Shown piece after piece: positions 11,817-32,625 of a stretch of DNA of 47,510 nt. Origin of the DNA: an uncultured Candidatus Saccharibacteria bacterium (GTDB lineage: Bacteria > Patescibacteriota > Minisyncoccia > Minisyncoccales > MHMH01). Each line of letters starts with the position of its first letter. Position 1 is the first letter of the stretch. Both the position numbers and the translations under genes were made by a program. Under the pieces are notes generated by a model that ran no database searches, was not told the DNA's origin, and saw only the letters and a program-made list of their open reading frames with translations. Location of the stretch: assembly GCA_964393465.1 (NCBI GenBank), contig CAYMTT010000002.1, positions 1 through 47,510 on the forward strand. The letters run 5' to 3'.

Positions 11817-13274
11817 TTAAGTGACCCAGTATTTATCCTTGGTCATTTTGTCCATTTTCGTTTCAATTTCCTCTCTTTCCATCCTGGCTCTGCCGGCCAG
11901 CTCTTCCAGTTTTTTATCGGGGAGTCCGGCCAGCCTTTCTATTTCTTTTTCCAGAAATTTCTTCGTGTTTTTCTTTGGATCGTCCAAAACGTGGCCCAGG
12001 AGAACGTCCAGAATCTGGCCTACTTTGGGCCCCGGCTCCATTTCCAGCTTTTTCATCACGTCTTTGCCGTCGACTTTCAGCTTCTTTACTGAAATAGGAT
12101 CGCGGGAAACTTTCTCTATTATGTATTTCAAATGCCTGAGCTTGTAAGGTTCGGCCTTCGGCACCCCTGATCCTATCCTGTCGCATTTTCTCAGTTGCAG
12201 AAGCTCTTCCATATTTTCAGGGCCGACGTTCCTCACCAGCCTTCTGACCGAGCTTTCGGTAACCTCATTAACATTGTAGTAAAATAAATGGTATCTGACC
12301 AGCTTGGCAACCTTTTCTATGTCTTTTTTCGGGAATTTCAAGCGCTCCATTATCTGGACTGTCATTTTGGCTCCCGCCATTTCGTGGTTGTAAAAAGTGG
12401 CAGAATCCCCTTGGCCTCTCTTTGTTCTGGGCTTGGCAATATCGTGCAAAAGAGCTGACAGCCTCACGTATTTATTGAACTTCTGTTCGGCAGCATATTT
12501 CAAAGAAAACAAGGAATGCTCGTAGCAATCGTAAATATGGTGCTTATTCTGGGAAATCCCGTAGCTTTCTTCCAGTTCGGGAATAATATATGCGAGCAGA
12601 CCGAGCTCCCTTAAAAGATCAATGCCTTCTGCAGCTCTGTCCGACATTATTATTTTCATCAATTCCTCCCTGATCCTCTCTTTGGAAATTGCCCTGAGCA
12701 AGGAAGCGTTCTCTTTTACAGCTTCAAGAGTGGCTTTTTCTATCTTCCAGCCCGGCTCCAAAACTGATACCAGTCTGGCGGCCCTCATCATTCTCAAGGG
12801 ATCCTGGGAAAGCCTGGCTTTGGGATCTCCCACGGCCCTGATAATCTTTTTTCCAAGGTCTTCCCTGCCCCCGAAAGGATCGATGAGCTCCTTTTTTTCG
12901 GGGTCCATTGCCATGGCATTGACCGTGAAATCTCTTCTGGACAGGTCTTCTTTTATAGTTTTGGCAAAATTGATTTCGTCGGGATGTCTTTTGTCGGTAT
13001 ACCTGGCTTCCGAGCGGTAGGTCGTAATTTCTATCTCTTTCAGGTTTTCCTTCTTGCTGCCGGTCTTGACCGTTACCGTCAAAAATTTGTTTTCGTAAAA
13101 ACTGTCTGGGAATACCTTCTGGATTTCTTCGGGTTTGGCTTTGGTGGCCACGTCCCAGTCGCCGGGCTCCCTGCCTCTCAAAAAATCCCTGAGGCATCCC
13201 CCGACAATGAAAGCTTCATAGCCTTTTTCTTTCAGTTTCCCGACCACAGATTTTACTTCTTTGGGAATTGTCAT
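11817..13274 (-). CDS. cca: CCA-adding tRNA nucleotidyltransferase with HD domain (485 aa)
   Basis: Pol-beta NTase motif GGCLRDFLRGREPGDWDVAT, RRDFTVNAMA, and HD motif LLHDIAKP. Confidence 0.88.
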   Translation of the reverse strand: MTIPKEVKSVVGKLKEKGYEAFIVGGCLRDFLRGREPGDWDVATKAKPEEIQKVFPDSFYENKFLTVTVKTGSKKENLKEIEITTYRSEARYTDKRHPDEINFAKTIKEDLSRRDFTVNAMAMDPEKKELIDPFGGREDLGKKIIRAVGDPKARLSQDPLRMMRAARLVSVLEPGWKIEKATLEAVKENASLLRAISKERIREELMKIIMSDRAAEGIDLLRELGLLAYIIPELEESYGISQNKHHIYDCYEHSLFSLKYAAEQKFNKYVRLSALLHDIAKPRTKRGQGDSATFYNHEMAGAKMTVQIMERLKFPKKDIEKVAKLVRYHLFYYNVNEVTESSVRRLVRNVGPENMEELLQLRKCDRIGSGVPKAEPYKLRHLKYIIEKVSRDPISVKKLKVDGKDVMKKLEMEPGPKVGQILDVLLGHVLDDPKKNTKKFLEKEIERLAGLPDKKLEELAGRARMEREEIETKMDKMTKDKYWVT

Positions 13275-13296
13275 TTTAATTAATTATAGATCAAAT

Positions 13297-13325
13297 TTGA
13301 TTTTTTTCAAATTCTTCAGTAAAAT
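13297..13325 (+). promoter_or_regulatory. sigma70-type promoter upstream of tRNA-Arg
   Basis: TTGATT (13297-13302), 17-nt spacer, TAAAAT (13320-13325). The tRNA 5-prime end is 9 nt downstream. Confidence 0.55.
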
Positions 13326-13333
13326 AAGCTTGC

Positions 13334-13405
13334 GCCCTCGTAGTATAATGGATAAAACGACGGGCTTCGGACCCGTAGATCTCCGTTCGAGTCGGAGCGA
13401 GGGCA
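13334..13405 (+). tRNA. tRNA-Arg (anticodon UCG), no complete CCA (followed by CCG)
   Basis: Hand-folded 72-nt cloverleaf: acceptor GCCCTCG/CGAGGGC, anticodon stem ACGGG/CCCGT, loop CTTCGGA, T-arm CTCCG-TTCGAGT-CGGAG, discriminator A. The D-stem has one mismatch. Confidence 0.85.
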
Positions 13406-13481
13406 CCGGGGGGCTTGACCGATTTTCAATACGGAGGCATCATTATGGCAGTTTTTCAAAATCTGCTATAATATAAAAAAT

Positions 13482-13877
13482 ATGAAAAAAACATTATTGA
13501 CCGTTTTCTTTTTTTCGTTCCTCTTTCCGGGGATCGCCCTGGCTCAGGGGTTTTGCGAAGGTCCTCTGGTTCCCTGCCAAATAGGGGAATGCCAGTTCTG
13601 CGACTTTTTCGTAATGCTCAACAACATCATCAAATTCATGATGTTCTGCCTGGCCCCTTTGCTGGCAGTGGTGATGCTCATTGCGGCGGGAGGAATGCTT
13701 TTTTTCGGCGGTATGAAACCGGGACTGGTTCAAAAAGCCAAAAGCACCATAACCACAACGGTTTTGGGGCTGGCTCTGGTCTTTTGCGCCTGGATAATAG
13801 TCAACACCGTGCTTACCCAGACCGGCCTGGTCCAAGCTCCTTCATTGCTGCAGTGGTACAATATCGAATGCCAATGA
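13482..13877 (+). CDS. short VirB2/TrbC-like pilin (131 aa), candidate major pilin
   Basis: Signal peptide (..FPGIALA/QG), a Cys-rich N-terminus (CEGPLVPCQIGECQFC), then two hydrophobic helices joined by GGMKPGLVQKAKST. This is the same two-helix module as the N-termini of 28454, 30495 and 31579. TGcTATAAT at 13464-13472 lies 10 nt before the ATG. Confidence 0.7.
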   Translation: MKKTLLTVFFFSFLFPGIALAQGFCEGPLVPCQIGECQFCDFFVMLNNIIKFMMFCLAPLLAVVMLIAAGGMLFFGGMKPGLVQKAKSTITTTVLGLALVFCAWIIVNTVLTQTGLVQAPSLLQWYNIECQ

Positions 13878-13880
13878 CGA

Positions 13881-13953
13881 GCCCCTATAACTCAATTGGC
13901 AGAGTAGCGGTCTCTTAAACCGTTAGTTCTAGGTTCGAATCCTAGTGGGGGCA
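13881..13953 (+). tRNA. tRNA-Lys (anticodon CUU), no encoded CCA
   Basis: Hand-folded 73-nt cloverleaf: acceptor GCCCCTA/TGGGGGC, D-arm ACTC-AATTGGCA-GAGT, anticodon loop CTCTTAA, T-arm CTAGG-TTCGAAT-CCTAG. It starts 4 nt after the pilin stop. Confidence 0.9.
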
Positions 13954-13954
13954 C

Positions 13955-13980
13955 ATAGAGATTGAATCTCTATTTGTTTT
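13955..13980 (+). terminator. intrinsic terminator after tRNA-Lys
   Basis: TAGAGAT (13956-13962), loop TGA, ATCTCTA (13966-13972), then TTTGTTTT. Confidence 0.65.
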
Positions 13981-14012
13981 AAAATTAAAAAGAGGTACAA
14001 TAAAAACAGATC

Positions 14013-15272
14013 ATGTTACCGAGGGTAAAAACTTGGCCAAAAAAACTAGAGGGCTACCAAAAATTCACAACCAAAAAACAGCTTGAGCAGATAAAGCATC
14101 TTTCCCAGGAGCTCAAAGGGCTGAAAGTTGCGATGGTCAACTCAACCCCCAGGGGAGGAGGAGTGGCAGAAGTAATGAAAAGCTTGGTTCCCATGATGAA
14201 AGGAGTGGGGATTAAAGTGGAATGGTACACTATCCCCGGGCGCGAAGATTTCTTTAAAATCACCAAGGAGATGCACAACGCTCTCCAAGGGAAGCAATAC
14301 GAATTCGGCTTCAAGGCCAGAAAAAGGTATTTAAAGCACATGGAAAGAACCGCCTGCTTAATGCAGGACATGCGCCCGGATCTCTGGATAATACACGATC
14401 CCCAGCCTGCCGGAACCATTCAGTACCTTTCCAACTTCCATCCGTCTGTCTGTAGGCTGCACATAGACCTTACCACTCCCAACAGGGAAGTCTGGGATTT
14501 CGTTTCCGGCTACCTGGCAATGTACGACAGGGTGGTGGTAAGCTCAAAGGATTTCGTTAGGCCCGAAGTGAAAAAGAAAACCATAGTCTTTCCTCCGGCC
14601 ATCGATCCTCTTTCCCCGAAAAACCAGCCCCTGGACGTCAAAAACTGCAGAGAGATAATCAAGAGCTTCGGGATCAACCCCAACCGGCCCCTGGTAACCC
14701 AGGTTTCCAGATTCGATCCTTGGAAAGCTCCCATGGAGGTGGTCAAAAGCTACCAGCTGGCCAAAAAGAAAATCCCCGACTTGCAGCTGGCCATGGTGGG
14801 GCTCTTTCTGGCCCAGGACGACCCGGAAGCCATCAAGGTCTACAAAGAAGTGAGAAAGGCGACGGGGGGAGATCCCGACGTATTTTTATTCGCCGATCCC
14901 AAATACCTGGGAGGGTTGAAAATAAGTACGTTCGTCAACTCCATACAGGGAGCCTCGGACATTATCCTGCAAAACTCCAAAAAAGAAGGTTTCGGGCTTA
15001 CGGTAGCCGAAGCCATGTGGAAAGAAAAGCCGGTTATCGGAGGGGGCGCGGCCGGCATAAAATACCAGATAAAGCAGGGAAAAAACGGATTCGTGGCCTC
15101 CACTCCAAAGGAAATGTCGGAAAGAATCGAAGAATTGATAAAAGACCCCCAGTTGGCTTCAAAAATAAGCAGGAACGCCCGCCGATCGGTCAAAAGAAAC
15201 TTCCTGATGCCCAGGCTTTTGAAAGACTACCTTTTCTTGTTCAAACATTTAATCTTAAACTGTCGCAGATAA
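14013..15272 (+). CDS. treT: GT4 glycosyltransferase of the trehalose glycosyltransferring synthase (TreT) type (419 aa)
   Basis: Collinear by-eye similarity over most of its length to archaeal/Thermotogae TreT as I remember it: NST.RGGGVAE...[67 protein letters not shown]. Confidence 0.75.
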
Positions 15273-15276
15273 AAAC

Positions 15277-15549
15277 ATGCTTCCAGCAGAAGATAAAACC
15301 CAAATAATAAAGAAGTACAAGCTTCACGAAAAGGACACCGGATCCCCAGAGGTTCAGGTCGCCCTTTTGACAGAAGAAATAGAGAGGCTGCTTTCCCATT
15401 TGAAAAAGCACAAAAAAGACTTCCATTCAAAAAGAGGGCTTTTGAAAATGGTGGCCAAAAGAAGGAAACTCCTTGACTACCTGAAAAACGAAGACCCAAA
15501 AAGATACGCTTCTACCATCAAAAAAGTAGCCTTAAAATTAAAAAAATAA
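15277..15549 (+). CDS. rpsO: 30S ribosomal protein uS15 (90 aa)
   Basis: Typical S15: ...[53 protein letters not shown]. Confidence 0.95.
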
Positions 15550-15552
15550 GGC

Positions 15553-16053
15553 ATGGTCAAGTTAAAAGAGCAGCGGGTCGGAATTCTCATTGACGTGCAG
15601 AATCTCTACCATTCGGCAAAAAACCTCTACAGGTCCAAAGTCAATTTTTCAGAAATCTTGAAAACCGGAGTAGCGGGCAGAAAACTGATACGGGCTTTCG
15701 CCTACGTGGTAAGGACAAAGACCGGGGAAGAGCGGCCCTTTTTCGACGCCCTGGTCAAACTGGGCATAGAAACCAGAATAAAAGACCTTCAAGAATATTT
15801 TGGCGGTTTGAAAAAAGCCGACTGGGACGTGGGAATAACCGTTGACGCGGTAAGAGCGTCCGCCAGCGTGGACGTCATAGTCCTGGTTTCCGGAGACGGA
15901 GATTTCATCCAATTGGTCGAATACCTGAAAAACCAAGGCAAAAGAGTGGAGGTTATGGCTTTCGGAAAATCGGCTTCCAGCAAACTCAAGGAAACCGCTG
16001 ACGAATTCACCGACCTGGGAGAAAATCCGGCCAAATACTTGCTTAAAAGATAA
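15553..16053 (+). CDS. NYN-domain (LabA/DUF88-like) predicted RNase (166 aa)
   Basis: VGILIDVQNLYHSAK..., DVGITVDAV and VLVSGDGDFIQLVEYLKNQGKRVEVMAF match the LabA-like NYN/PIN-like fold signature. Confidence 0.8.
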   Translation: MVKLKEQRVGILIDVQNLYHSAKNLYRSKVNFSEILKTGVAGRKLIRAFAYVVRTKTGEERPFFDALVKLGIETRIKDLQEYFGGLKKADWDVGITVDAVRASASVDVIVLVSGDGDFIQLVEYLKNQGKRVEVMAFGKSASSKLKETADEFTDLGENPAKYLLKR

Positions 16054-24757: not shown

Positions 24758-25189
24758 ATGATTCAAAACCCCGAAATAAACGAAATTAAAAAATCTCTTT
24801 TGGGCAAGGTTCCAGAACCCGTCCTGGAATTGGCGGGATCGGAAGAAACGGCCTCCCAAATAGCTCAGATCTGCTCTGACAATGAAGTGGAAAGTAAAGA
24901 AGAGATAGAACAAACCGCCCTTCAAATAGGATTGGTGCTTTTGGGAAAACTGAATCCAGAAAAGTTGACCGACGCCTTGAAAAAAGAGGCGGATTTGGAT
25001 CCCCAGACCGCAGAAAGGGTTTACCTTGAAGTAAACAGGCTGATTTTCTCCCAAGTAAGGGGGGAATTGGCTAAAATGTACAAAAAAGAAGAAGAAGGCA
25101 AATCCAAGATAAGAAAGGACTCTCTTCCTCCGAAAGAAGAAACCCAAGGGTCGTCTAAAAACGACACTTACAGAGAACCTATCGAATAA
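24758..25189 (+). CDS. acidic soluble protein of unknown function (143 aa)
   Basis: Start set at MIQNPEINEIKK (ATG 24758, 4 nt after the upstream stop). The listed longer ORF would overlap the upstream gene. Confidence 0.6.
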   Translation: MIQNPEINEIKKSLLGKVPEPVLELAGSEETASQIAQICSDNEVESKEEIEQTALQIGLVLLGKLNPEKLTDALKKEADLDPQTAERVYLEVNRLIFSQVRGELAKMYKKEEEGKSKIRKDSLPPKEETQGSSKNDTYREPIE

Positions 25190-25599
25190 TGGATAATTTT
25201 ACGGTTCCAAAGTTTATAGAAGAAAAACCCAAGGTGGTCGGACCTTTAACTTTCCGGCAGTTCCTTTTTGTGGGAACGGCGGCGGGCATCTGCTTGATAC
25301 TGTATTTTACCGTTCCCCTGCACATATTCCTGATCTGCGGCGTAATCCTTCTAACCGGTTCTTTCTTTCTGGCTTTCGGCAAGGTTAACGGAATACCCAT
25401 TATAATGGTGATAAAGAATTTTTTTGTTTTTCTTTCCGCTCCCAAAATTTATCTTTGGAAAAGAAAAGTGCTCCCTCCAAAATTCGTGGAGAAAGCCGCC
25501 AAACCCCCCGAAAAAGAAGATAAAAAAGATGTCCCCAGGATAGCGGAAAAAAGCCAATTAAGAGATCTTTCTACGAGAATTGAAACGGGAGTAAAATAA
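25189..25599 (+). CDS. PrgI/VirB3-like two-TM protein (136 aa)
   Basis: FTVPKFIEEKPKVVGPLTFRQFLFVG is followed by two TM helices, and the gene lies immediately upstream of VirB4-like genes. The ATG overlaps the upstream TAA (TAATG). Confidence 0.6.
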   Translation: MDNFTVPKFIEEKPKVVGPLTFRQFLFVGTAAGICLILYFTVPLHIFLICGVILLTGSFFLAFGKVNGIPIIMVIKNFFVFLSAPKIYLWKRKVLPPKFVEKAAKPPEKEDKKDVPRIAEKSQLRDLSTRIETGVK

Positions 25600-25603
25600 A
25601 AAT

Positions 25604-26242
25604 ATGAAACAACTAACCACACAATCTTTTCTGGAAATAGATCAAATAAGGGAAGGCGTCATCGTCTTGAAAGACAACTCCTTGAAAGGAGCGCTGATGG
25701 CTTCCTCTTTGAACTTCGCTTTGAAATCGGAAGAAGAGCAGACTGCCATAGTCTACCAATTCCAGAATTTCTTAAACTCTTTGGATTTCTCCTGCCAGGT
25801 GGTGATTCAGTCCAGAAAACTTAATATGACAGGATATCTGGAAAAACTGAAGGAGCTGGAAAACAAGCAGCAAAACGAGCTTCTGAAAATACAAACCAAA
25901 GAATACCACAATTTTATAAAAGAGCTGGTGGCCACGGGCGACATCATGAGCAAGTCTTTTTATGTGGTGGTTCCTTTTTACCCTCTCCAAACATGGAAAA
26001 AGGCTTCCAAAAATATATTCAAATCTTCCAAACAGCAAAAACTGACAGAGAACGATTTTCAAAGGGGAAAACAGCAGCTCTGGCAGAGAATGGAGTTCGT
26101 AGCCCTGGGCCTCAGGAGATGCGGCGTCCAGGGAGTGCCCTTGACCACCCCCGAATTGATAGAGCTTCTGTGGGGGCTCCACCATCCAAAAAGAGCCGAA
26201 GTGGGATATTATCCAGAGGTTCCTCCTGAATTATCAAGATAA
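25604..26242 (+). CDS. hypothetical protein resembling a free-standing VirB4 N-terminal domain (212 aa)
   Basis: Pattern FLEIDQIREGVIVLKDNSLKGALMASSLNFALKSEEEQTAIVYQFQNFLNSLDFSCQVVIQSRKLN parallels the N-region of the next gene (IAPSSIEIKSSWLKLGERFSKSFFIFSYPRYLNTAWFSPIINLDIPMDISLFIHP). Confidence 0.55.
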   Translation: MKQLTTQSFLEIDQIREGVIVLKDNSLKGALMASSLNFALKSEEEQTAIVYQFQNFLNSLDFSCQVVIQSRKLNMTGYLEKLKELENKQQNELLKIQTKEYHNFIKELVATGDIMSKSFYVVVPFYPLQTWKKASKNIFKSSKQQKLTENDFQRGKQQLWQRMEFVALGLRRCGVQGVPLTTPELIELLWGLHHPKRAEVGYYPEVPPELSR

Positions 26243-26251
26243 AAAATTTCT

Positions 26252-28045
26252 ATGAAACTTCCTTTTTTCGGCAAAAAAAAGAAAAAACCGCTTCCCGGAG
26301 ATCAGCTTTTCGAAGGGGAAGCCATGAGAGCGGCAGACATTATCGCCCCTTCTTCCATTGAAATTAAATCTTCCTGGCTCAAACTGGGAGAAAGGTTTTC
26401 AAAATCCTTTTTCATCTTCTCTTATCCCAGATATCTTAACACGGCCTGGTTTTCCCCTATAATCAATCTGGATATTCCCATGGATATTTCCCTGTTCATC
26501 CATCCAATAGAAGCGGGCTTGATTTTAAAGCAATTGAGAAGAAGGATAACCGAAATACAAGCAGAAATGATGGAAAGGGAAGAAAAGGGAATGATCAGGG
26601 ATCCGGCCTTGGAAACGGCCCACAACGACGTCGAAGAACTCAGAGACAGATTGCAAACCGCCCAGGAAAGAATGTTCAAAATAGGAATATATCTAACGGT
26701 ATACGCCGACACCGAAAAAGAGCTCGACAATATGGAAAACACCCTCCGCTCGATTCTGGAGGCCAAGCTGATCTATATAAAGCCGGCTCTCTACCAGCAG
26801 AAAGAGGGATTCATATCCACTTCTCCCTACTGCATGGATCAGCTGGGAGTTCACGCTTCCATGAACACCGGGCCCTTGTCCTCCACTTTTCCTTTTGTGT
26901 CTTTTGATTTAAGCTCCAACGAAGGCATACTTTACGGGGTCAACCAGCATAACAACTCTTTGGTTCTTTTTGACAGATTCAGTCTGGAAAACGCCAATAT
27001 GACCGTTTTCGGGGTGGCCGGATCCGGCAAAAGCTACGCCTTGAAACTGGAAATACTGCGCTCCCTGATGCTGGGAACAGACACTGTAATTGTCGACCCG
27101 GAAAACGAATATAAGTTTTTGTCCGACGCCGTGGGCGGCTCTTTTTTCAAAATATCTCTGGGCAGCCCCAGCCATATCAACCCTTTTGATTTGCCTATCC
27201 CCAGAGAGGATGAAAAAGCGGAAGACGTTTTGAGGTCGAACATAATAAACCTGGTGGGCTTAATGAGGCTCATGCTGGGAGGGCTGACCGCAGAAGAAGA
27301 CGCCATTATGGACAGAGCGCTGACCGAAACCTATGCTGCCAAAGACATTACTCCCGAATCCGACTTTTCCAAAGTGAGCCCTCCTTTGATGTCCGACTTG
27401 GAATCGGTTCTGAACACCATGGAAGGGGCCGAATCCCTGGTCAGAAGAGTAAGAAAATTCACCAAGGGGAGCTATGCCAACTTTTTCAACCAGCATTCCA
27501 ACGTAAACATGAAAAACAGCCTGGTGGTTTTCGGCATAAGGGATATGGAAGAAGGCCTAAGGCCCATAGCAATGTACATCATCACCCGCTACATTTGGAA
27601 CCAAATACGCTCCGAGCTCAAAAAGAGGATATTCGTGGTCGACGAAGCTTGGTGGCTGATGCATTCAGAAGACGGAGCCTCTTTCCTTTTCGGAATAGTC
27701 AAAAGGGCCAGAAAATACTGGCTGGGGGTCACCACCATCACCCAGGACGTCAACGACTTTATGAGATCCGACTACGGAAAACCGATAATCACAAACTCCG
27801 CGCTTTCTCTTTTAATGAAACAAAGCCCGGCGACCATAAACACCGTCCAGGAAACTTTCAATCTCACCGACTGGGAAAAAGACTTGCTTTTGGGATCTGC
27901 GGTGGGGGAGGGAGTGTTTTTTGCCGGCCAGAAGCATGTTTCGGTCAAGGTTACAGCTTCTTACACAGAAGACCAATTCATCACCACGGCCCCCGAAGAG
28001 GTGGCCAAAATTAAAAAAACGAGGAAAGAACAACCTTCCTCTTAA
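26252..28045 (+). CDS. VirB4/TraC/TrbE-family secretion ATPase (597 aa)
   Basis: Walker A GVAGSGKSYALK, Walker B RIFVVDEAWWLM, and the downstream motif GVTTITQDVNDF. Confidence 0.85.
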   Translation: MKLPFFGKKKKKPLPGDQLFEGEAMRAADIIAPSSIEIKSSWLKLGERFSKSFFIFSYPRYLNTAWFSPIINLDIPMDISLFIHPIEAGLILKQLRRRITEIQAEMMEREEKGMIRDPALETAHNDVEELRDRLQTAQERMFKIGIYLTVYADTEKELDNMENTLRSILEAKLIYIKPALYQQKEGFISTSPYCMDQLGVHASMNTGPLSSTFPFVSFDLSSNEGILYGVNQHNNSLVLFDRFSLENANMTVFGVAGSGKSYALKLEILRSLMLGTDTVIVDPENEYKFLSDAVGGSFFKISLGSPSHINPFDLPIPREDEKAEDVLRSNIINLVGLMRLMLGGLTAEEDAIMDRALTETYAAKDITPESDFSKVSPPLMSDLESVLNTMEGAESLVRRVRKFTKGSYANFFNQHSNVNMKNSLVVFGIRDMEEGLRPIAMYIITRYIWNQIRSELKKRIFVVDEAWWLMHSEDGASFLFGIVKRARKYWLGVTTITQDVNDFMRSDYGKPIITNSALSLLMKQSPATINTVQETFNLTDWEKDLLLGSAVGEGVFFAGQKHVSVKVTASYTEDQFITTAPEEVAKIKKTRKEQPSS

Positions 28046-28051
28046 ACTTTT

Positions 28052-28453
28052 ATGGCCGAAGAAACCGGAGGAAACGCCAATTTATTAGGACCGGAAGCCG
28101 TTCTTATGCTCACTTTAGCCTGCATGATAGACGGAGGCGAACTGGTAATAGAGCATATTCCGGGAGTCGGACAGATAATCTCGGTGGCCCTGGATATTTT
28201 CGCTTTCCTGTTTTTCGGCGTTTGGATGGTTTTTAGAAATAGCAGTGGAATCCGGGTTCCGAGCCGAACCAAAGCCAAAGCCACCAAACTGGCAAAAAGA
28301 ATCAAATGGCTGAGGCCTTTCTTCTTTGGAACCAAAAAAATCAAATGGCTGAGGCCTCTCTGCTTCGGAATAGAACTGATTCCCATATTCAGCAGCTATC
28401 TGCCTTTTTGGATTTTGATCGTCTTTTTGGAATTAAAAAACACCGAAACTTAA
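28052..28453 (+). CDS. small membrane protein with an internal 13-aa duplication (133 aa)
   Basis: Listed ORF with hydrophobic helices. KRIKWLRPFFFGT / KKIKWLRPLCFGI is a tandem duplication. Confidence 0.6.
   Translation: MAEETGGNANLLGPEAVLMLTLACMIDGGELVIEHIPGVGQIISVALDIFAFLFFGVWMVFRNSSGIRVPSRTKAKATKLAKRIKWLRPFFFGTKKIKWLRPLCFGIELIPIFSSYLPFWILIVFLELKNTET
28301..28357 (+). repeat. 18-nt direct repeat at 39-nt spacing inside the CDS
   Basis: atcaaatggctgaggcct occurs at 28301-28318 and 28340-28357. Confidence 0.85.
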
Positions 28454-30493
28454 ATGATAAGATTGAAAGAAATCCGAAAACTCTTTCTGCCTCTGCTTAT
28501 TTTTTTCTTGCTGGCCGGGGCAGGTTCCGTTTTGGCTCAAAGAGATCTGGAAGTGGATTATCCCTCCCTGCCCGGCGTGGAAATGTCTCTGAATACCGTT
28601 GAAGGGACTTCTCTGCCAGACTACGTAAAATACATATTCAACTTCGCCATAGCTCTTGCCGGAATCGCCGCCCTGGTCGCTTTGGTTATGGGAGGAATGA
28701 AATATCTTACCTCTGCCGGGGATCCTGCCAAAATGCAAGAGGCCAAAAGTCGAATTCTGGCCGCTTTCCTGGGAATAATAATCCTTTTCAGCTCATATTT
28801 CATCTTCACCACCATAAATCCAGAGCTGGTGGTTTTCGAGGTATCCGGACTGCCCGATATAAGCATTATAGAAAAATACGTGCCCTTTGAACTTCCATCT
28901 ATAAACACCTCTTTTAATGTTGAAATACCGGTGGAAACCAGGTTCAAGGGCATAGAAGAACAGGATTTTGGAGTTTTCGAGCCCAACCGCCTGGAAAAAA
29001 TCAGAGATTTTTCCATTGCGGCTGAAGAAACGGCCATAGAAACCAAAGGAATATCCAACGAACTGACAAGCCTCACTTTTCAATGCAAATGCAACTACGG
29101 ATGCAATCCTCCCGCCGGCTGCGTCCAACCTTTCTGTGAAGGAAATTGCGAATGGGTGTGTAATGAATATGGGGAAGAATGCGTTTGTGAAGGCTGCTGC
29201 GATGCGGTAAAAAAAGACACGAGTTCGGGAGCAGAAAACGGAGAGGAAAGCCAAGAAGGAGAAGTTCAAGGAGAGGTTAAGGGATGTTCCGGCGGCAGCT
29301 GTCCGATAGGCGAAGAGGAAGAGGAGGAGGAAGAAGAGGAGGAGGAAGAGGGAGGATATATGGTGGAATGCAGCAGCGACCCTTGTTGTTTGGTCAGGTC
29401 CCAAATGTCCAGCAAAATGGCAGAAAACAGAATCAAAGTTACTCAATTTGAAGAATTGATAAAACTTTTACACAGGGAAAGAACGGAAATGGAAATGGAG
29501 GCTGACCGCCTGGAAAAAGCCATGGAAATAATGCAAGAATGCCCCATTTATGGAGTCTTGAGCAGGGATAACTTCATCAGCTTGAAAGATTATTACGATC
29601 AGCACAATTGGATACTGAAAAAAATCATATACTGGGAAGAAATTCCTTATCTTTTGCCGGGTTCTTACGCCGATGTTTATTGTCCGGTGGGCGGCAATAT
29701 TTCCGAATATGTTCCAGAAAACGAAGTTACAGAAGAAACTTTAGACGAGTCCACTGAAGAATTCCAAAAATACCTGGAAGAAGGCGGAGGCTACGAAGAA
29801 GTAACCGTGGATTGCAATATACCCATACCCTTCGGGGAAGTGGTTGATTTCGGGCTCAAGGTGGCTTATGAATTCATAGAACTGGTCAAAGAACTCATAG
29901 AATTGCAAACGGAAATGATAGAAACTGTAGCCCAACTGCACGAGGCCGTTTCCGGGTGCACCTCGATGAACTGCACGGCTGAATGCGGTTGCACTCTATG
30001 TGAAGAATGCGGATGCGGAGGATTTTGCACGGGAACTCCCTGCCCCACATCGGAAATTCTTAAGGCCAACGATAAAATAGAAAAATTACAAGAACAAATA
30101 ACAGAAAAAAGAGAAGAAATAGAGGAATACATAGACGTGGAAATACCAGATTATCTTGAAGGGCCATTTACCGAAATGGCCAACAGATTCCATAATTGCC
30201 AAGCGGAGCCCGAACAATTGGAGCCCGGATATCTTTTGATGGACTGCCAACGGAGCATGGGAGGCATAGGGCCCGACGGCAAAGTCCTAGGAATTGAAGG
30301 AGGAACCCAAACCTGGGAAACCCAGGCCTGCAAATGCCAGGAATTTTCCTCTTGCAGAAGGGATTTCCACGACATTTTAGAAACTTATACCTTGGGGGGC
30401 TGCGACAATCCCACTACGGTGCTCGAATACAGATGTGAACATATAGAAAATTGCTACGAATACAATTTCTTTTGTTGCAGAATAAAAGATTAA
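28454..30493 (+). CDS. pilin-module fusion protein with two Cys-knot clusters, helical segments and a poly-Glu tract (679 aa)
   Basis: N-terminus: signal peptide, LEVDYPSLPG, LPDYVKYIFNF, helix, GGMKYLTSAGDPAKMQEAKSR, helix, TTINPELVVFE. C-terminus: CKCNYGCNPPAGCVQPFCEGNCEWVCNEYGEECVCEGCC and CTSMNCTAECGCTLCEECGCGGFCTGTPCP. Confidence 0.7.
   Translation: MIRLKEIRKLFLPLLIFFLLAGAGSVLAQRDLEVDYPSLPGVEMSLNTVEGTSLPDYVKYIFNFAIALAGIAALVALVMGGMKYLTSAGDPAKMQEAKSRILAAFLGIIILFSSYFIFTTINPELVVFEVSGLPDISIIEKYVPFELPSINTSFNVEIPVETRFKGIEEQDFGVFEPNRLEKIRDFSIAAEETAIETKGISNELTSLTFQCKCNYGCNPPAGCVQPFCEGNCEWVCNEYGEECVCEGCCDAVKKDTSSGAENGEESQEGEVQGEVKGCSGGSCPIGEEEEEEEEEEEEEGGYMVECSSDPCCLVRSQMSSKMAENRIKVTQFEELIKLLHRERTEMEMEADRLEKAMEIMQECPIYGVLSRDNFISLKDYYDQHNWILKKIIYWEEIPYLLPGSYADVYCPVGGNISEYVPENEVTEETLDESTEEFQKYLEEGGGYEEVTVDCNIPIPFGEVVDFGLKVAYEFIELVKELIELQTEMIETVAQLHEAVSGCTSMNCTAECGCTLCEECGCGGFCTGTPCPTSEILKANDKIEKLQEQITEKREEIEEYIDVEIPDYLEGPFTEMANRFHNCQAEPEQLEPGYLLMDCQRSMGGIGPDGKVLGIEGGTQTWETQACKCQEFSSCRRDFHDILETYTLGGCDNPTTVLEYRCEHIENCYEYNFFCCRIKD
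29312..29350 (+). repeat. GAR codon tract encoding 13 consecutive Glu
   Basis: gaagaggaagaggaggaggaagaagaggaggaggaagag, in frame within 28454-30493. Confidence 0.9.
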
Positions 30494-30494
30494 A

Positions 30495-31577
30495 ATGAAA
30501 GGCTTCAAATTAAAAATATTTTTGGGACTGATAATAACGATGCTCTTTTTCGCCTCGCCGATTTTCGGCCAGGAAAGACAATTGGAGCTCGATTATCCGG
30601 AAATAGAGGGTTTCTCTCCTCAAACTGTTTCCACCGGACTTCCAGACTATGTAAAATACCTGTTTAACTTCTCTTTGGGCATAGCCGCTTTGGTTTGTTT
30701 TATCGTTCTCGTTTATGCCGGCTTCCGCTGGGCGACTTCCATGGGAAATCCGGCAAAGAAACTCGATGCCAAAGACAGGGTTTTTTCCGCCTTCCTGGGG
30801 CTGACCATTTTGGTTTTTTCTTATTTGATTTTCACCACCATAAATCCAGAACTGGTTATTTTCGAAATGGCAGAGATAGAAAAAGTTCAAGAAGCCCCTC
30901 CTTCTCCTTCTCCGACAGAAAAAATGTCCATCGATCCTTTAACCAGAATCGTGAAACTGGCTCGCGATGTCAAGGGATCCGCTTATGATTTAAGCAAGGC
31001 CGGCTCCGTCCTTTATGGGGCGGTCGAAGCATGCAGCTGCGATTACGTGCGGTCTTTCTGCGACTGCGGAGGATTATCATGTATCCCCAGATTTTGTTAT
31101 GGGTATCCCTGTCTCGACAGAGACAGCATGGTGGAACATCAGAAAAAACTGGTGGAAATGATAGACCAAATTCTGTATTATAAAAACAGGGTGAACATTG
31201 AAAGGCAGCATATGGGCCCGGAGTTGGAAAGATTCCAGTTCTGGGGCACTTTGAACGAAAGCCAAAGCAGGGACCTTGTCGACAAAATGGAATCTTTGCC
31301 CGAAAAAATAATAGAAATGTCCAGAGCCGGCCAAAATCTTGTTTGGCTTCCCGAAACTTGCTCCGCTAGAAACTGCGATGCCGGCTGTACCCAAGAAAGT
31401 TGCCACGATACTCCCGGCTGCCGCTCCTTGGTTTGCACCGGAGAGAATCCTTGCAATCTTCACAAACCCTGCATGTCCGCCGAAGCGGGCGAAGATGAAA
31501 CCGACGTCGAATTTATGAAAAGAATGTACCAAGAGATATCCGATATTTGCGACGCCATAATTAACATTCTGGAATAA
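30495..31577 (+). CDS. pilin-module fusion protein with a Cys-rich C-terminal domain (360 aa)
   Basis: It has the same N-terminal module (LELDYPEIEG, LPDYVKYLFNF, GFRWATSMGNPAKKLDAKDR, TTINPELVIFE). C-terminus: CSCDYVRSFCDCGGLSCIPRFCYGYPC and CSARNCDAGCTQESCHDTPGCRSLVCTGENPC. Confidence 0.7.
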   Translation: MKGFKLKIFLGLIITMLFFASPIFGQERQLELDYPEIEGFSPQTVSTGLPDYVKYLFNFSLGIAALVCFIVLVYAGFRWATSMGNPAKKLDAKDRVFSAFLGLTILVFSYLIFTTINPELVIFEMAEIEKVQEAPPSPSPTEKMSIDPLTRIVKLARDVKGSAYDLSKAGSVLYGAVEACSCDYVRSFCDCGGLSCIPRFCYGYPCLDRDSMVEHQKKLVEMIDQILYYKNRVNIERQHMGPELERFQFWGTLNESQSRDLVDKMESLPEKIIEMSRAGQNLVWLPETCSARNCDAGCTQESCHDTPGCRSLVCTGENPCNLHKPCMSAEAGEDETDVEFMKRMYQEISDICDAIINILE

Positions 31578-31578
31578 T

Positions 31579-32625
31579 ATGCTTAAAAAAAGAATTTTAT
31601 CTATATTTTTTCTGGCCGGATTGCTGCTTTCTGCAAGCGGAGGTTTTTTATCGGCGCAAGACAGGCCCCTGGAGCTCGATTATCCGACCATACCCGGCGT
31701 AACCATCGTTCCAAAAAACGTTGAAGAGACCTCCTTGCCAGAATACATAGACTATATCTTCAATCTGGCTCTCTGGGTGGTGGGATTAATCGCTTTCGGA
31801 GCCCTGGTTTACGGAGGATTCAGATATATAACTTCCATGGGGAATCCGGCTTCGATGGGAGACGCCAAAAGCCAGATTTTCGCTGGAATTCTCGGTTTAA
31901 TAATTCTTGTGTCTTCTTATCTTGTCTTGACGACTATAAACCCTCAGCTTGTGGTTTTCGACGTGGAAGAAATACAAAATGTCTCCACCGTCGGACCGGG
32001 CGTCTGGCTCTGTAATGCCTCCATTGATAATATTGAAAGTTTTATGGAAAATCCAAACAACTTCGAGTCCGAAGAAAGAGAGCGCCTGACTCAATTGGTG
32101 CAAAATCATTGTTTCAGACCCTCGACCAAAACCTTGATTCCCGATCGTATAAAAAACGGCCTGGAAAAGGCCTATGTGGTGGGGGATTATGGGGCTGTCC
32201 TGCACGAGGGACCGGAACCTTTCAAAGGCGAATGCCAGGTTGTCGCCCAGAGCCAGTCGGTGGGAACTGCCAACTCGGTGACTCCTTTCCTTATAAACGA
32301 AACGGCTTTTGCTGGGAACGGGGTTACCTTATATGAAAACAGGGATTTTAATCTCGACGAGCCGGGAAAGGAAGCCAATTACACTTCCGACGCCAGCAGC
32401 GGCATGGAGCCCTGCCAGTCAATAAAAATAAACGAAGAAAACCAATGGGTAGCCGTAGCTTTCAAAGACAGGGGCTTCCAAGGAGAGTGTGAAGTTTTCG
32501 ACAGAAGTGATAGGGATTTAAACGACGATTACGTGGGCAGATTCTGCATCCCCGGTCTTGCTTTCTGGGAGAGGCAAACCTGCATATATTCTCTGAAGGT
32601 ATTTAAAGGGTTGCTCTTGGATTAA
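31579..32625 (+). CDS. pilin-module fusion protein with a different, possibly beta/gamma-crystallin-like C-terminal domain (348 aa)
   Basis: It has the same N-terminal module (LELDYPTIPG, LPEYIDYIFNL, GFRYITSMGNPASMGDAKSQ, TTINPQLVVFD). The C-terminus has repeated VTLYENRDFN / AVAFKDRGFQGECEVFDRSDRDL-type motifs. Confidence 0.7.
   Translation: MLKKRILSIFFLAGLLLSASGGFLSAQDRPLELDYPTIPGVTIVPKNVEETSLPEYIDYIFNLALWVVGLIAFGALVYGGFRYITSMGNPASMGDAKSQIFAGILGLIILVSSYLVLTTINPQLVVFDVEEIQNVSTVGPGVWLCNASIDNIESFMENPNNFESEERERLTQLVQNHCFRPSTKTLIPDRIKNGLEKAYVVGDYGAVLHEGPEPFKGECQVVAQSQSVGTANSVTPFLINETAFAGNGVTLYENRDFNLDEPGKEANYTSDASSGMEPCQSIKINEENQWVAVAFKDRGFQGECEVFDRSDRDLNDDYVGRFCIPGLAFWERQTCIYSLKVFKGLLLD

Follow-up and report, generated by a model that had tools for sequence, protein, structure and literature searches.

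A candidate type IV secretion pilin gene kept between tRNA-Arg and tRNA-Lys genes across a bacterial order, with a predicted leaderless message

The window analysed here is a stretch of 47,510 nucleotides (nt) corresponding to contig C2 (CAYMTT010000002.1) of genome G000, an assembly of 646 kb in 27 contigs whose completeness is estimated at 100%. The host is an ultrasmall bacterium of the Candidate Phyla Radiation (CPR, or Patescibacteria), Nealsonbacteria/Minisyncoccales-like. In its first third the window carries a tRNA-Arg gene, a short open reading frame (ORF) with the features of a type IV secretion system (T4SS) pilin, a tRNA-Lys gene and a terminator-like hairpin, all in the same orientation (Table 1). 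The immediate neighbours of this tRNA-pilin-tRNA unit are RNA housekeeping genes (cca, rpsO, a NYN-domain gene and pnp), plus a TreT gene. PrgI/VirB3-like and VirB4-like genes (25189-28045) are found on the same contig, 11-12 kb downstream of the pilin, which is located outside their operon. The locus that spans 25189-32625 is a Patescibacteria T4SS locus of the type surveyed by Quinonero-Coronel et al. (2025, PMC12102498). CPR bacteria live in dependence on contact with a host, a lifestyle to which few surface components, T4SS-like pilins among them, have been linked. Such pilins are reported to be essential in one cultivated strain (PMC12102498) and highly expressed in relatives that parasitise archaea (PMC10936435).

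Table 1 Features of the pilin locus and of the T4SS locus in the window
Feature	Position	Strand	Evidence and remarks
cca (CCA-adding enzyme)	11817..13274	-	Pfam PolyA_pol, PolyA_pol_RNAbd, HD, tRNA_NucTran2_2; divergent from the tRNA-Arg unit
Promoter-like TTGATT-17-TAAAAT	13297..13325	+	Consensus scan, 9/12; ends 8 nt 5' of tRNA-Arg; function putative
tRNA-Arg(TCG)	13334..13405	+	ARAGORN, Rfam, sequence; single copy in genome; CCA not encoded
Extended -10 box TGcTATAAT	13464..13472	+	Consensus scan; ends 9 nt 5' of the pilin ATG
Pilin ORF, 131 aa, VirB2/TrbC-type, 4-Cys subclass (probable)	13482..13877	+	Pfam
tRNA-Lys(CTT)	13881..13953	+	ARAGORN, Rfam; single copy in genome; CCA not encoded
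Weak terminator-like hairpin, 8 bp, A/U-rich, then UUUGUUUU	13955..13980	+	RNAfold
TreT-type trehalose synthase gene	14013..15272	+	Pfam TreT_GT1, Glycos_transf_1
rpsO (ribosomal protein S15)	15277..15549	+	Followed by the NYN-domain gene, then pnp (Pfam NYN, PNPase)
NYN-domain (PIN-like nuclease) gene	15553-16053		Between rpsO and pnp
PrgI/VirB3-like gene	25189-25599		
VirB4/TraG-like ATPase gene	26252-28045		
Three long proteins with the pilin module	28454-32625		PF18895 near the N-terminus of each

ARAGORN and Rfam agree on both tRNAs, the ends of which (13334-13405/7 for tRNA-Arg and 13881-13953/4 for tRNA-Lys, both on the + strand) are those given in a preliminary description of the locus made from the DNA letters. 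The Rfam RF00005 scores are 61.7 bits for tRNA-Arg and 68.6 bits for tRNA-Lys, against a gathering score of 29. Neither gene encodes the terminal CCA, because the discriminator bases read from the sequence, A13405 and A13953, precede CCG and CAU, respectively. The same is true of all four tRNA genes of the window, the sole tRNA 3' ends that were read. The TGA stop codon of the pilin (13875-13877) is separated by 3 nt from G1 of tRNA-Lys. At the other end, a spacer of 76 nt, which contains the pilin's own promoter-like box, separates tRNA-Arg from the ATG.

Both promoters proposed in the preliminary description were recovered by a consensus scan. The site upstream of tRNA-Arg, TTGATT-17-TAAAAT, matches the consensus at 9 of 12 positions. 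The near-leaderless TGcTATAAT box of the pilin forms part of ATGGCA-16-TATAAT (13445-13472), which matches at 10 of 12 positions and has the upstream TG. The scan found 7 promoter-like sites in the region 12800-14500, versus 1.9 +/- 1.4 in shuffled sequences. A terminator scan of the window found no terminator between tRNA-Arg and the pilin ORF. The “clean terminator” thought to follow tRNA-Lys stands in part. A hairpin and a U-tract are present, but the hairpin is weak and was missed by the terminator scan, which called no + strand terminator after tRNA-Lys. The hairpin (13955-13973) was not called because it has fewer than three G-C pairs. Its folding energy is -6.7 kcal/mol (z = -2.5), a value matched by 3 of 200 shuffled sequences. 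We regard it as present but weak.

The ORF product matches both the T4SS_pilin family PF18895 (31.2 bits; gathering cutoff 26.6) and the TrbC/VirB2 family PF04956 (29.6 bits; gathering cutoff 27.9). It consists of a signal peptide, a Cys-rich exported N-terminus (LVPC, CxFC[DH]FF), a helix hairpin and a C-terminal W..I.C motif. In an alignment of 30 pilin orthologues (A1), C37 and C40 are invariant and C130 is present in at least 90% of the sequences. The predicted cleavage site, of the A-x-A type, is ALA|QG in the window's pilin and QAA|GLVPCG in the consensus. The AlphaFold2 (AF2) model based on the same alignment (mean pLDDT 72.5) features helices at residues 3-14, corresponding to the signal peptide, and at residues 38-75 and 80-114, corresponding to the hairpin. 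The top Foldseek match in the PDB is 8exh_A, the VirB2 protein of the Agrobacterium T-pilus (TM score 0.63 by target, 28% identity, E = 1.1), and a sequence profile of the pilin matched no PDB chain at E <= 1. The fold match is suggestive only, since a fold as simple as a helix hairpin does not discriminate. Since the Pfam scores exceed the cutoffs, the AF2 model features a helix hairpin and the best, if weak, fold match is to T-pilus VirB2, the ORF product is probably a VirB2/TrbC-type pilin of the Patescibacteria T4SS that is exported by the Sec pathway and belongs to a distinct subclass with four conserved exported cysteines. This assignment is made jointly with the explanation of the locus proposed below.

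The tRNA-flanked pilin is a single-copy protein with the signature LVPCG ... CxFC[HD]FF ... helix hairpin ... W..I.C, and matches its paralogues in the same genome at E of about 1e-4 only. PF18895 has seven matches in the genome. The three long proteins encoded at 28454-32625 each carry this module near the N-terminus, in line with the pilin module that the preliminary description had noticed in all of them. The window's pilin has cysteines beyond the four conserved exported ones of the family, namely C24 and, within the helices, C56 and C102. Immediately N-terminal to helix 1 is a CxxC[HD] motif. The exported cysteines may form disulfide bonds or bind a metal. Both VirB2 and TrbC undergo head-to-tail cyclisation. 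One may speculate that the N- and C-tails of the pilin, both of which should be extramembrane, could be joined by disulfides, as a possible analogue of that cyclisation. Some loci, such as L037, L053, L095 and L098, encode tRNA-flanked pilins with an exported N-terminal extension of 300-450 residues. In these proteins, which are still encoded between tRNA-Arg and tRNA-Lys, the pilin module is C-terminal, the opposite of its position in the three fusion proteins of the window.

Of 61 genomes sampled from the order, which span 43 families, 59 have a pilin orthologue. In a first sample of the order (30 loci, i.e., the window's own and 29 relatives), tRNA-Lys(CTT) is present in 27 loci and tRNA-Arg(TCG) in 24. 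A wider set of 81 loci includes the window and 80 loci obtained from an independent scan of 185,579 species genomes. In this set tRNA-Lys(CTT) is the next same-strand tRNA downstream of the pilin in 67 loci, tRNA-Arg(TCG) is the nearest same-strand tRNA upstream in 55, and both flanks are found in 50. Conservation of the arrangement in relatives, which the preliminary description had proposed to examine, is thus strongly positive.

The distance from the pilin stop codon to tRNA-Lys is at most 10 nt in 37 of the 67 loci, being 0 nt or less in 5 and 1-10 nt in 32. It is 11-40 nt in 13 loci, 41-160 nt in 12 and more than 160 nt in 5. According to the ARAGORN coordinates, there is no spacer at all between the stop codon and tRNA-Lys in L042 and L095 (gap -1), where the two overlap, and in L040, L073 and L110 (gap 0), where they are contiguous. 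In these five loci, an RNase P cut would yield an mRNA ending at the stop codon, or one base short of it.

The conserved block extends beyond the two tRNAs. The window's own S15 and CCA proteins were used as tblastn queries against the 80 related loci. In 51 of them cca lies upstream of tRNA-Arg in divergent orientation, and in 57 rpsO is found on the same strand after tRNA-Lys; in 9 of the latter, rpsO begins 6-10 nt after the tRNA. As cca is upstream in 51 loci and rpsO downstream in 57, the ancestral order was probably cca (divergent), tRNA-Arg, pilin, tRNA-Lys, rpsO, possibly continuing with the NYN-domain gene and pnp. Of the 67 related loci, 23 have a hairpin with a T-run after tRNA-Lys, whereas in many others the tRNA is directly followed by rpsO. 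TreT is found after tRNA-Lys only in the window, L033, L038 and L041. It separates tRNA-Lys from rpsO in the window, L033 and L041, and no rpsO match was found within the examined stretch of L038. Because TreT is restricted to these four loci, it is taken as a lineage-specific insertion that brought the terminator-like hairpin behind tRNA-Lys.

The four-Cys pilin itself is found class-wide, in 139 of 151 genomes at E <= 1e-12 with a profile of alignment A1. We had expected the tRNA flanks to be class-wide as well. This is ruled out by 60 loci from other orders of the class (best match +/- 2 kb), only 3 of which feature tRNA-Lys(CTT) and 2 tRNA-Arg(TCG). In five outgroup genomes, no tRNA-Lys is adjacent to rpsO. 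The tRNA-pilin-tRNA layout appears to be essentially order-specific. Since tRNA flanks are scarce outside the order, the pilin must be older than the arrangement, which seems to have arisen in or near the ancestor of the order.

At the 3' side, the ORF and tRNA-Lys are on the same strand, and the gap between them is too short to host a terminator or a promoter. A distance of 3 nt implies that every pilin transcript must enter tRNA-Lys. Co-transcription of the two genes, as we infer it, is well supported by comparison with the relatives. The view that the pilin forms one unit with tRNA-Lys holds, as a terminator would not fit between the two and their spacing is kept in relatives. Similarly, in the 9 loci in which rpsO begins 6-10 nt after tRNA-Lys, its transcription must traverse the tRNA. 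The genome contains a gene for a bacterial type-A RNase P RNA (G000:C6:19155-19574, 115 bits), and it is a reasonable inference of the preliminary description, with a precedent in secG-leuU of E. coli, that the RNase P cut sets the 3' end of the pilin mRNA.

The 5' side was analysed in 77 orthologous loci, in which start codons were assigned by signal-peptide features. Two layouts were observed. In 34 loci, a -10-like hexamer ends 3-13 nt before the ATG, most often at 6-8 nt, and is preceded by the TG extension in 20. In 15 loci, the 3' end of tRNA-Arg is found 0-17 nt from the ATG, leaving no room for a promoter. The remaining 28 loci fit neither layout, though several show weaker -10 boxes. 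Leaderless initiation of the pilin is well supported by these comparisons, because TGnTAnnnT followed after 4-10 nt by an in-frame start codon occurs in 27 of the 77 loci, the window included, versus 2.0 expected from shuffled sequences, and because an SD-like (Shine-Dalgarno) motif is found at only one. No locus among the 77 in which tRNA-Arg truly abuts the ORF carries the -10 box. An apparent overlap of the two layouts in L031 is due to an upstream start call, as the box precedes a second in-frame ATG located 30 nt downstream.

These patterns predict two interchangeable routes to a leaderless pilin mRNA, i.e., initiation at a dedicated -10 box or 3' processing of tRNA-Arg. The window belongs to the first class, and its own extended -10 box predicts a leader of 0 or 1-3 nt. 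In contrast, a transcript reading through from tRNA-Arg would carry a 76-nt leader without an SD motif. The coupling of the pilin to the tRNA-Arg promoter that the preliminary description had envisaged is tenable insofar as nothing that resembles a terminator intervenes and read-through is possible. The pilin has its own promoter, however, and the tight, conserved coupling is to tRNA-Lys.

The second route would require an enzyme that frees the mRNA 5' end after tRNA-Arg. The canonical RNase Z (TIGR02651) was not found in the genome. Three ORFs with a metallo-beta-lactamase fold were evaluated as RNase Z candidates and rejected, as they correspond to RNase J, a ComEC-like domain and a generic hydrolase. 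The RNase J gene (C7:11453-13129) is located right after a tRNA-Leu(CAG) gene. Speculatively, the NYN-domain nuclease encoded next to rpsO could be a candidate processor of the tRNA-mRNA transcripts of the block.

Both features of the unit were also surveyed throughout the genome, using a crude ORF map. Upstream of start codons, -10-like hexamers are most numerous at distances of 6-9 nt, with counts of 34 (6 nt) and 25 (8 nt) over a background of about 5-8. Many of these hexamers carry the TG extension, and the signal of SD-like motifs is weak. In this organism, initiation may be mainly leaderless. The genome contains 46 tRNA genes, with each anticodon represented once except Met(CAT), which is found twice. 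About 12 of the 46 tRNAs begin 0-10 nt after the stop codon of a same-strand ORF, the gap being 4 nt in six instances, and there are a few ORFs whose start is at most 13 nt downstream of a tRNA. This spacing suggests that polycistronic transcripts punctuated by tRNAs are general in the genome. Leaderless messages and mixed tRNA-mRNA units thus look like the house style of the genome and not a peculiarity of the pilin. The preliminary description called the nesting of a protein gene between tRNAs unusual, which is not borne out in this genome. The special feature is how long the tRNA-Arg/pilin/tRNA-Lys triplet has been kept.

Taken as a whole, the explanation that we favour, and consider rather likely, is that a T4SS pilin is embedded in an order-wide housekeeping block and expressed from a leaderless message, which is co-transcribed with tRNA-Lys and released by RNase P. 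In the window, pilin transcription would most likely start at the extended -10 box and yield a leaderless mRNA, with possible additional read-through from the tRNA-Arg promoter. Transcription would run from the pilin straight into tRNA-Lys and stop at the weak hairpin. An RNase P cut at G1 of tRNA-Lys would free the tRNA and leave a pilin mRNA that ends 3 nt after the stop codon, i.e., a message essentially devoid of untranslated regions.

Several observations weigh against this explanation. The hairpin located 3' of tRNA-Lys is weak (-6.7 kcal/mol), and the promoter and terminator calls are consensus matches only. An extended -10-like sequence, TGgTACAAT, is found inside the 3' end of the ORF (13855-13863), 17 nt before tRNA-Lys, and could drive tRNA-Lys alone. 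No RNase Z candidate that could free the mRNA 5' end after an abutting tRNA-Arg was identified in the genome. The VirB2 fold match is non-significant and no PDB chain is found by sequence profile. Finally, tight tRNA-ORF spacing is observed genome-wide, and the linkage may reflect compaction and not a regulation specific to the pilin.

A bolder version of the favoured explanation holds that mRNA ends are routinely made by tRNA processing in this order, in a punctuation similar to that of mitochondria, and that the pilin is hard-wired into a transcript of the translation apparatus (tRNA-Arg|pilin|tRNA-Lys|rpsO|pnp), with selection for leaderlessness acting by two routes. As the canonical RNase Z is missing, tRNA 3' ends would be cut by another endonuclease, and this cut would generate the leaderless 5' ends. 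We propose this combination tentatively, and doubt that all of its parts apply together.

The full reading of the preliminary description, in which the pilin is the abundant major subunit of the T4SS filament and is driven mainly by a strong tRNA-Arg promoter, is unlikely. The protein is the most compact form of the pilin, consisting of the module only, and is encoded by a core gene in a housekeeping context, with no terminator separating it from tRNA-Arg. In two Minisyncoccaceae genomes of the same order (PMX.108 and PMX.50), Kuroda et al. (2024, PMC10936435) report T4SS pilins, the paralogue being unspecified, in the top five of signal-peptide genes by expression. Abundance is not established by these data, since short pilins of another class, which lacks cysteines, are just as widespread, being found in 54 of 61 relatives, usually in tandem arrays. 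Similar VirB2 arrays are known from Saccharimonadia, where they are described as essential (PMC12102498). The Cys-free member present in the genome, a 113-residue protein (G000:C13:21751-22092), outscores the tRNA-flanked pilin against PF18895 (47.9 versus 31.8 bits). The dependence on tRNA-Arg is further weakened by the pilin's own promoter and by the 76-nt leader, lacking an SD motif, of a read-through transcript. The Cys-free pilin belongs to a second pilin locus (L111, G000:C13:21569-22819), which also encodes a pilin of at least 224 residues with a Cys-rich, poly-Glu/Gly N-terminal domain. The frame of the latter is open to the contig end (22819-22820), and the gene is probably truncated. 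A tRNA-Leu(TAG) gene lies on the same strand 98 nt after the L111 pilins.

Less probable still is that tRNA-Arg, the pilin and tRNA-Lys are three independent units with separate promoters, that of tRNA-Lys being located inside the pilin ORF, and that the conserved gene order results from compaction and slow rearrangement alone, without any link in processing. The TGgTACAAT sequence would fit such a promoter, but -10-like hexamers are not enriched in the last 40 nt of the ORF in relatives with gaps of 15 nt or less (10 of 40 loci, versus 29% expected), and we retain an internal tRNA-Lys promoter solely as a rival. Genome-wide compaction, as seen in the tight tRNA-ORF spacing, is compatible with independent units, and so is the fact that the layout has been lost in some lineages without obvious consequence, with gaps longer than 160 nt in 5 loci and no such layout at 57 of the 60 loci from other orders. 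In contrast, gaps of 0-10 nt leave no space for a terminator, so that pilin transcripts enter the tRNA anyway, and an rpsO gene located 6-10 nt after tRNA-Lys, as in 9 relatives, needs upstream transcription.

tRNA genes are classic integration sites and T4SS genes are typical cargo, and the pilin lies about 11 kb from the T4SS cluster. Under a last reading, a conjugative or integrative element would have entered the genome at the 3' end of tRNA-Arg and decayed, sparing only an orphan pilin with little present function. This is hardly credible and was rejected. The pilin is conserved and intact, with a constant architecture and invariant residues, in 59 of 61 genomes at the level of the order and in 139 of 151 at that of the class. 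Pfam searches on the neighbour genes revealed no integrase or relaxase, and, since this pilin occurs in other orders without flanking tRNAs, it predates the arrangement.

Mixed tRNA-mRNA operons and VirB2-like pilins of Patescibacteria are already known. In the E. coli tufB operon (thrU-tyrU-glyT-thrT-tufB), four tRNAs are co-transcribed with a downstream protein gene from the tRNA promoter. In contrast to the pilin, tufB keeps a normal leader with an SD motif and has no tRNA at its 3' end. The closest parallel is provided by secG-leuU of E. coli (Mohanty and Kushner 2008, PMC2241853). There, the two genes form a co-transcript that ends with a Rho-independent terminator. RNase P separates the tRNA, acting after terminator removal, and its cut sets the mRNA 3' end; the freed secG mRNA decays quickly. 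The two systems share a gene for a small membrane protein, followed directly by a tRNA; in the window, the weak terminator-like hairpin comes next. The window differs in its 3-nt gap, its predicted leaderless mRNA and its second tRNA upstream. In addition, the tRNA is paired with a gene for a T4SS pilin, in an arrangement kept over a whole CPR order.

A further parallel is tRNA punctuation in mitochondria (Ojala, Montoya and Attardi 1981), whereby leaderless mRNAs closely flanked by tRNAs, with hardly any spacer, reportedly have their ends made by tRNA-processing enzymes. The loci of the order resemble this arrangement where the ATG is found 0-17 nt after tRNA-Arg (15 of 77) and where the stop codon touches or overlaps tRNA-Lys (5 loci). 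The window resembles it at the 3' side (3 nt) but not at the 5' side (76 nt and a promoter of its own). In contrast to mitochondria, bacterial promoters and terminators would still be in use, and a canonical RNase Z was not found in the genome. With its own promoter, 76-nt spacer and terminator-like hairpin, the window is a milder variant of the layout.

As to the protein, the pilin shares PF18895/PF04956 similarity, a signal peptide and a helix hairpin with the Patescibacteria VirB2-like pilins (PMC12102498), Agrobacterium VirB2 and RP4 TrbC. The genome also carries VirB4, VirB3/PrgI and VirB6-like genes, as other Patescibacteria T4SS do. Unlike the pilins surveyed in PMC12102498, the window's gene stands alone, about 11 kb from virB4. 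The subclass with four exported cysteines (LVPCG, CxFC, C-terminal Cys) is not singled out in that paper, and the word tRNA does not occur in its text. Searches for Patescibacteria and “leaderless” returned incidental matches only. No description of the order-wide tRNA-Arg - pilin - tRNA-Lys - rpsO block, or of its either/or leaderless layouts, was found in the searchable literature.

If the pilin is indeed part of a tRNA/ribosomal-protein unit and is translated from a message without untranslated regions, it would be expressed constitutively, in a housekeeping-like manner, and bacteria of the order would provide a simple model for the definition of mRNA ends by tRNA processing. The alternative 5' layouts, with a dedicated -10 box at some loci and an abutting tRNA at others, provide a direct, testable prediction on selection for leaderless initiation. 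The conserved block may also be used as a synteny marker for the order.

Lastly, the 59-nt intergenic region between cca and tRNA-Arg (13275-13333) features two overlapping, back-to-back promoter-like sites, one per strand. The site facing cca, TTGAAA-16-TATAAT (- strand, 13310 to 13283), matches the consensus at 11 of 12 positions and ends 8 nt before the cca ATG. The cca mRNA likewise looks leaderless.

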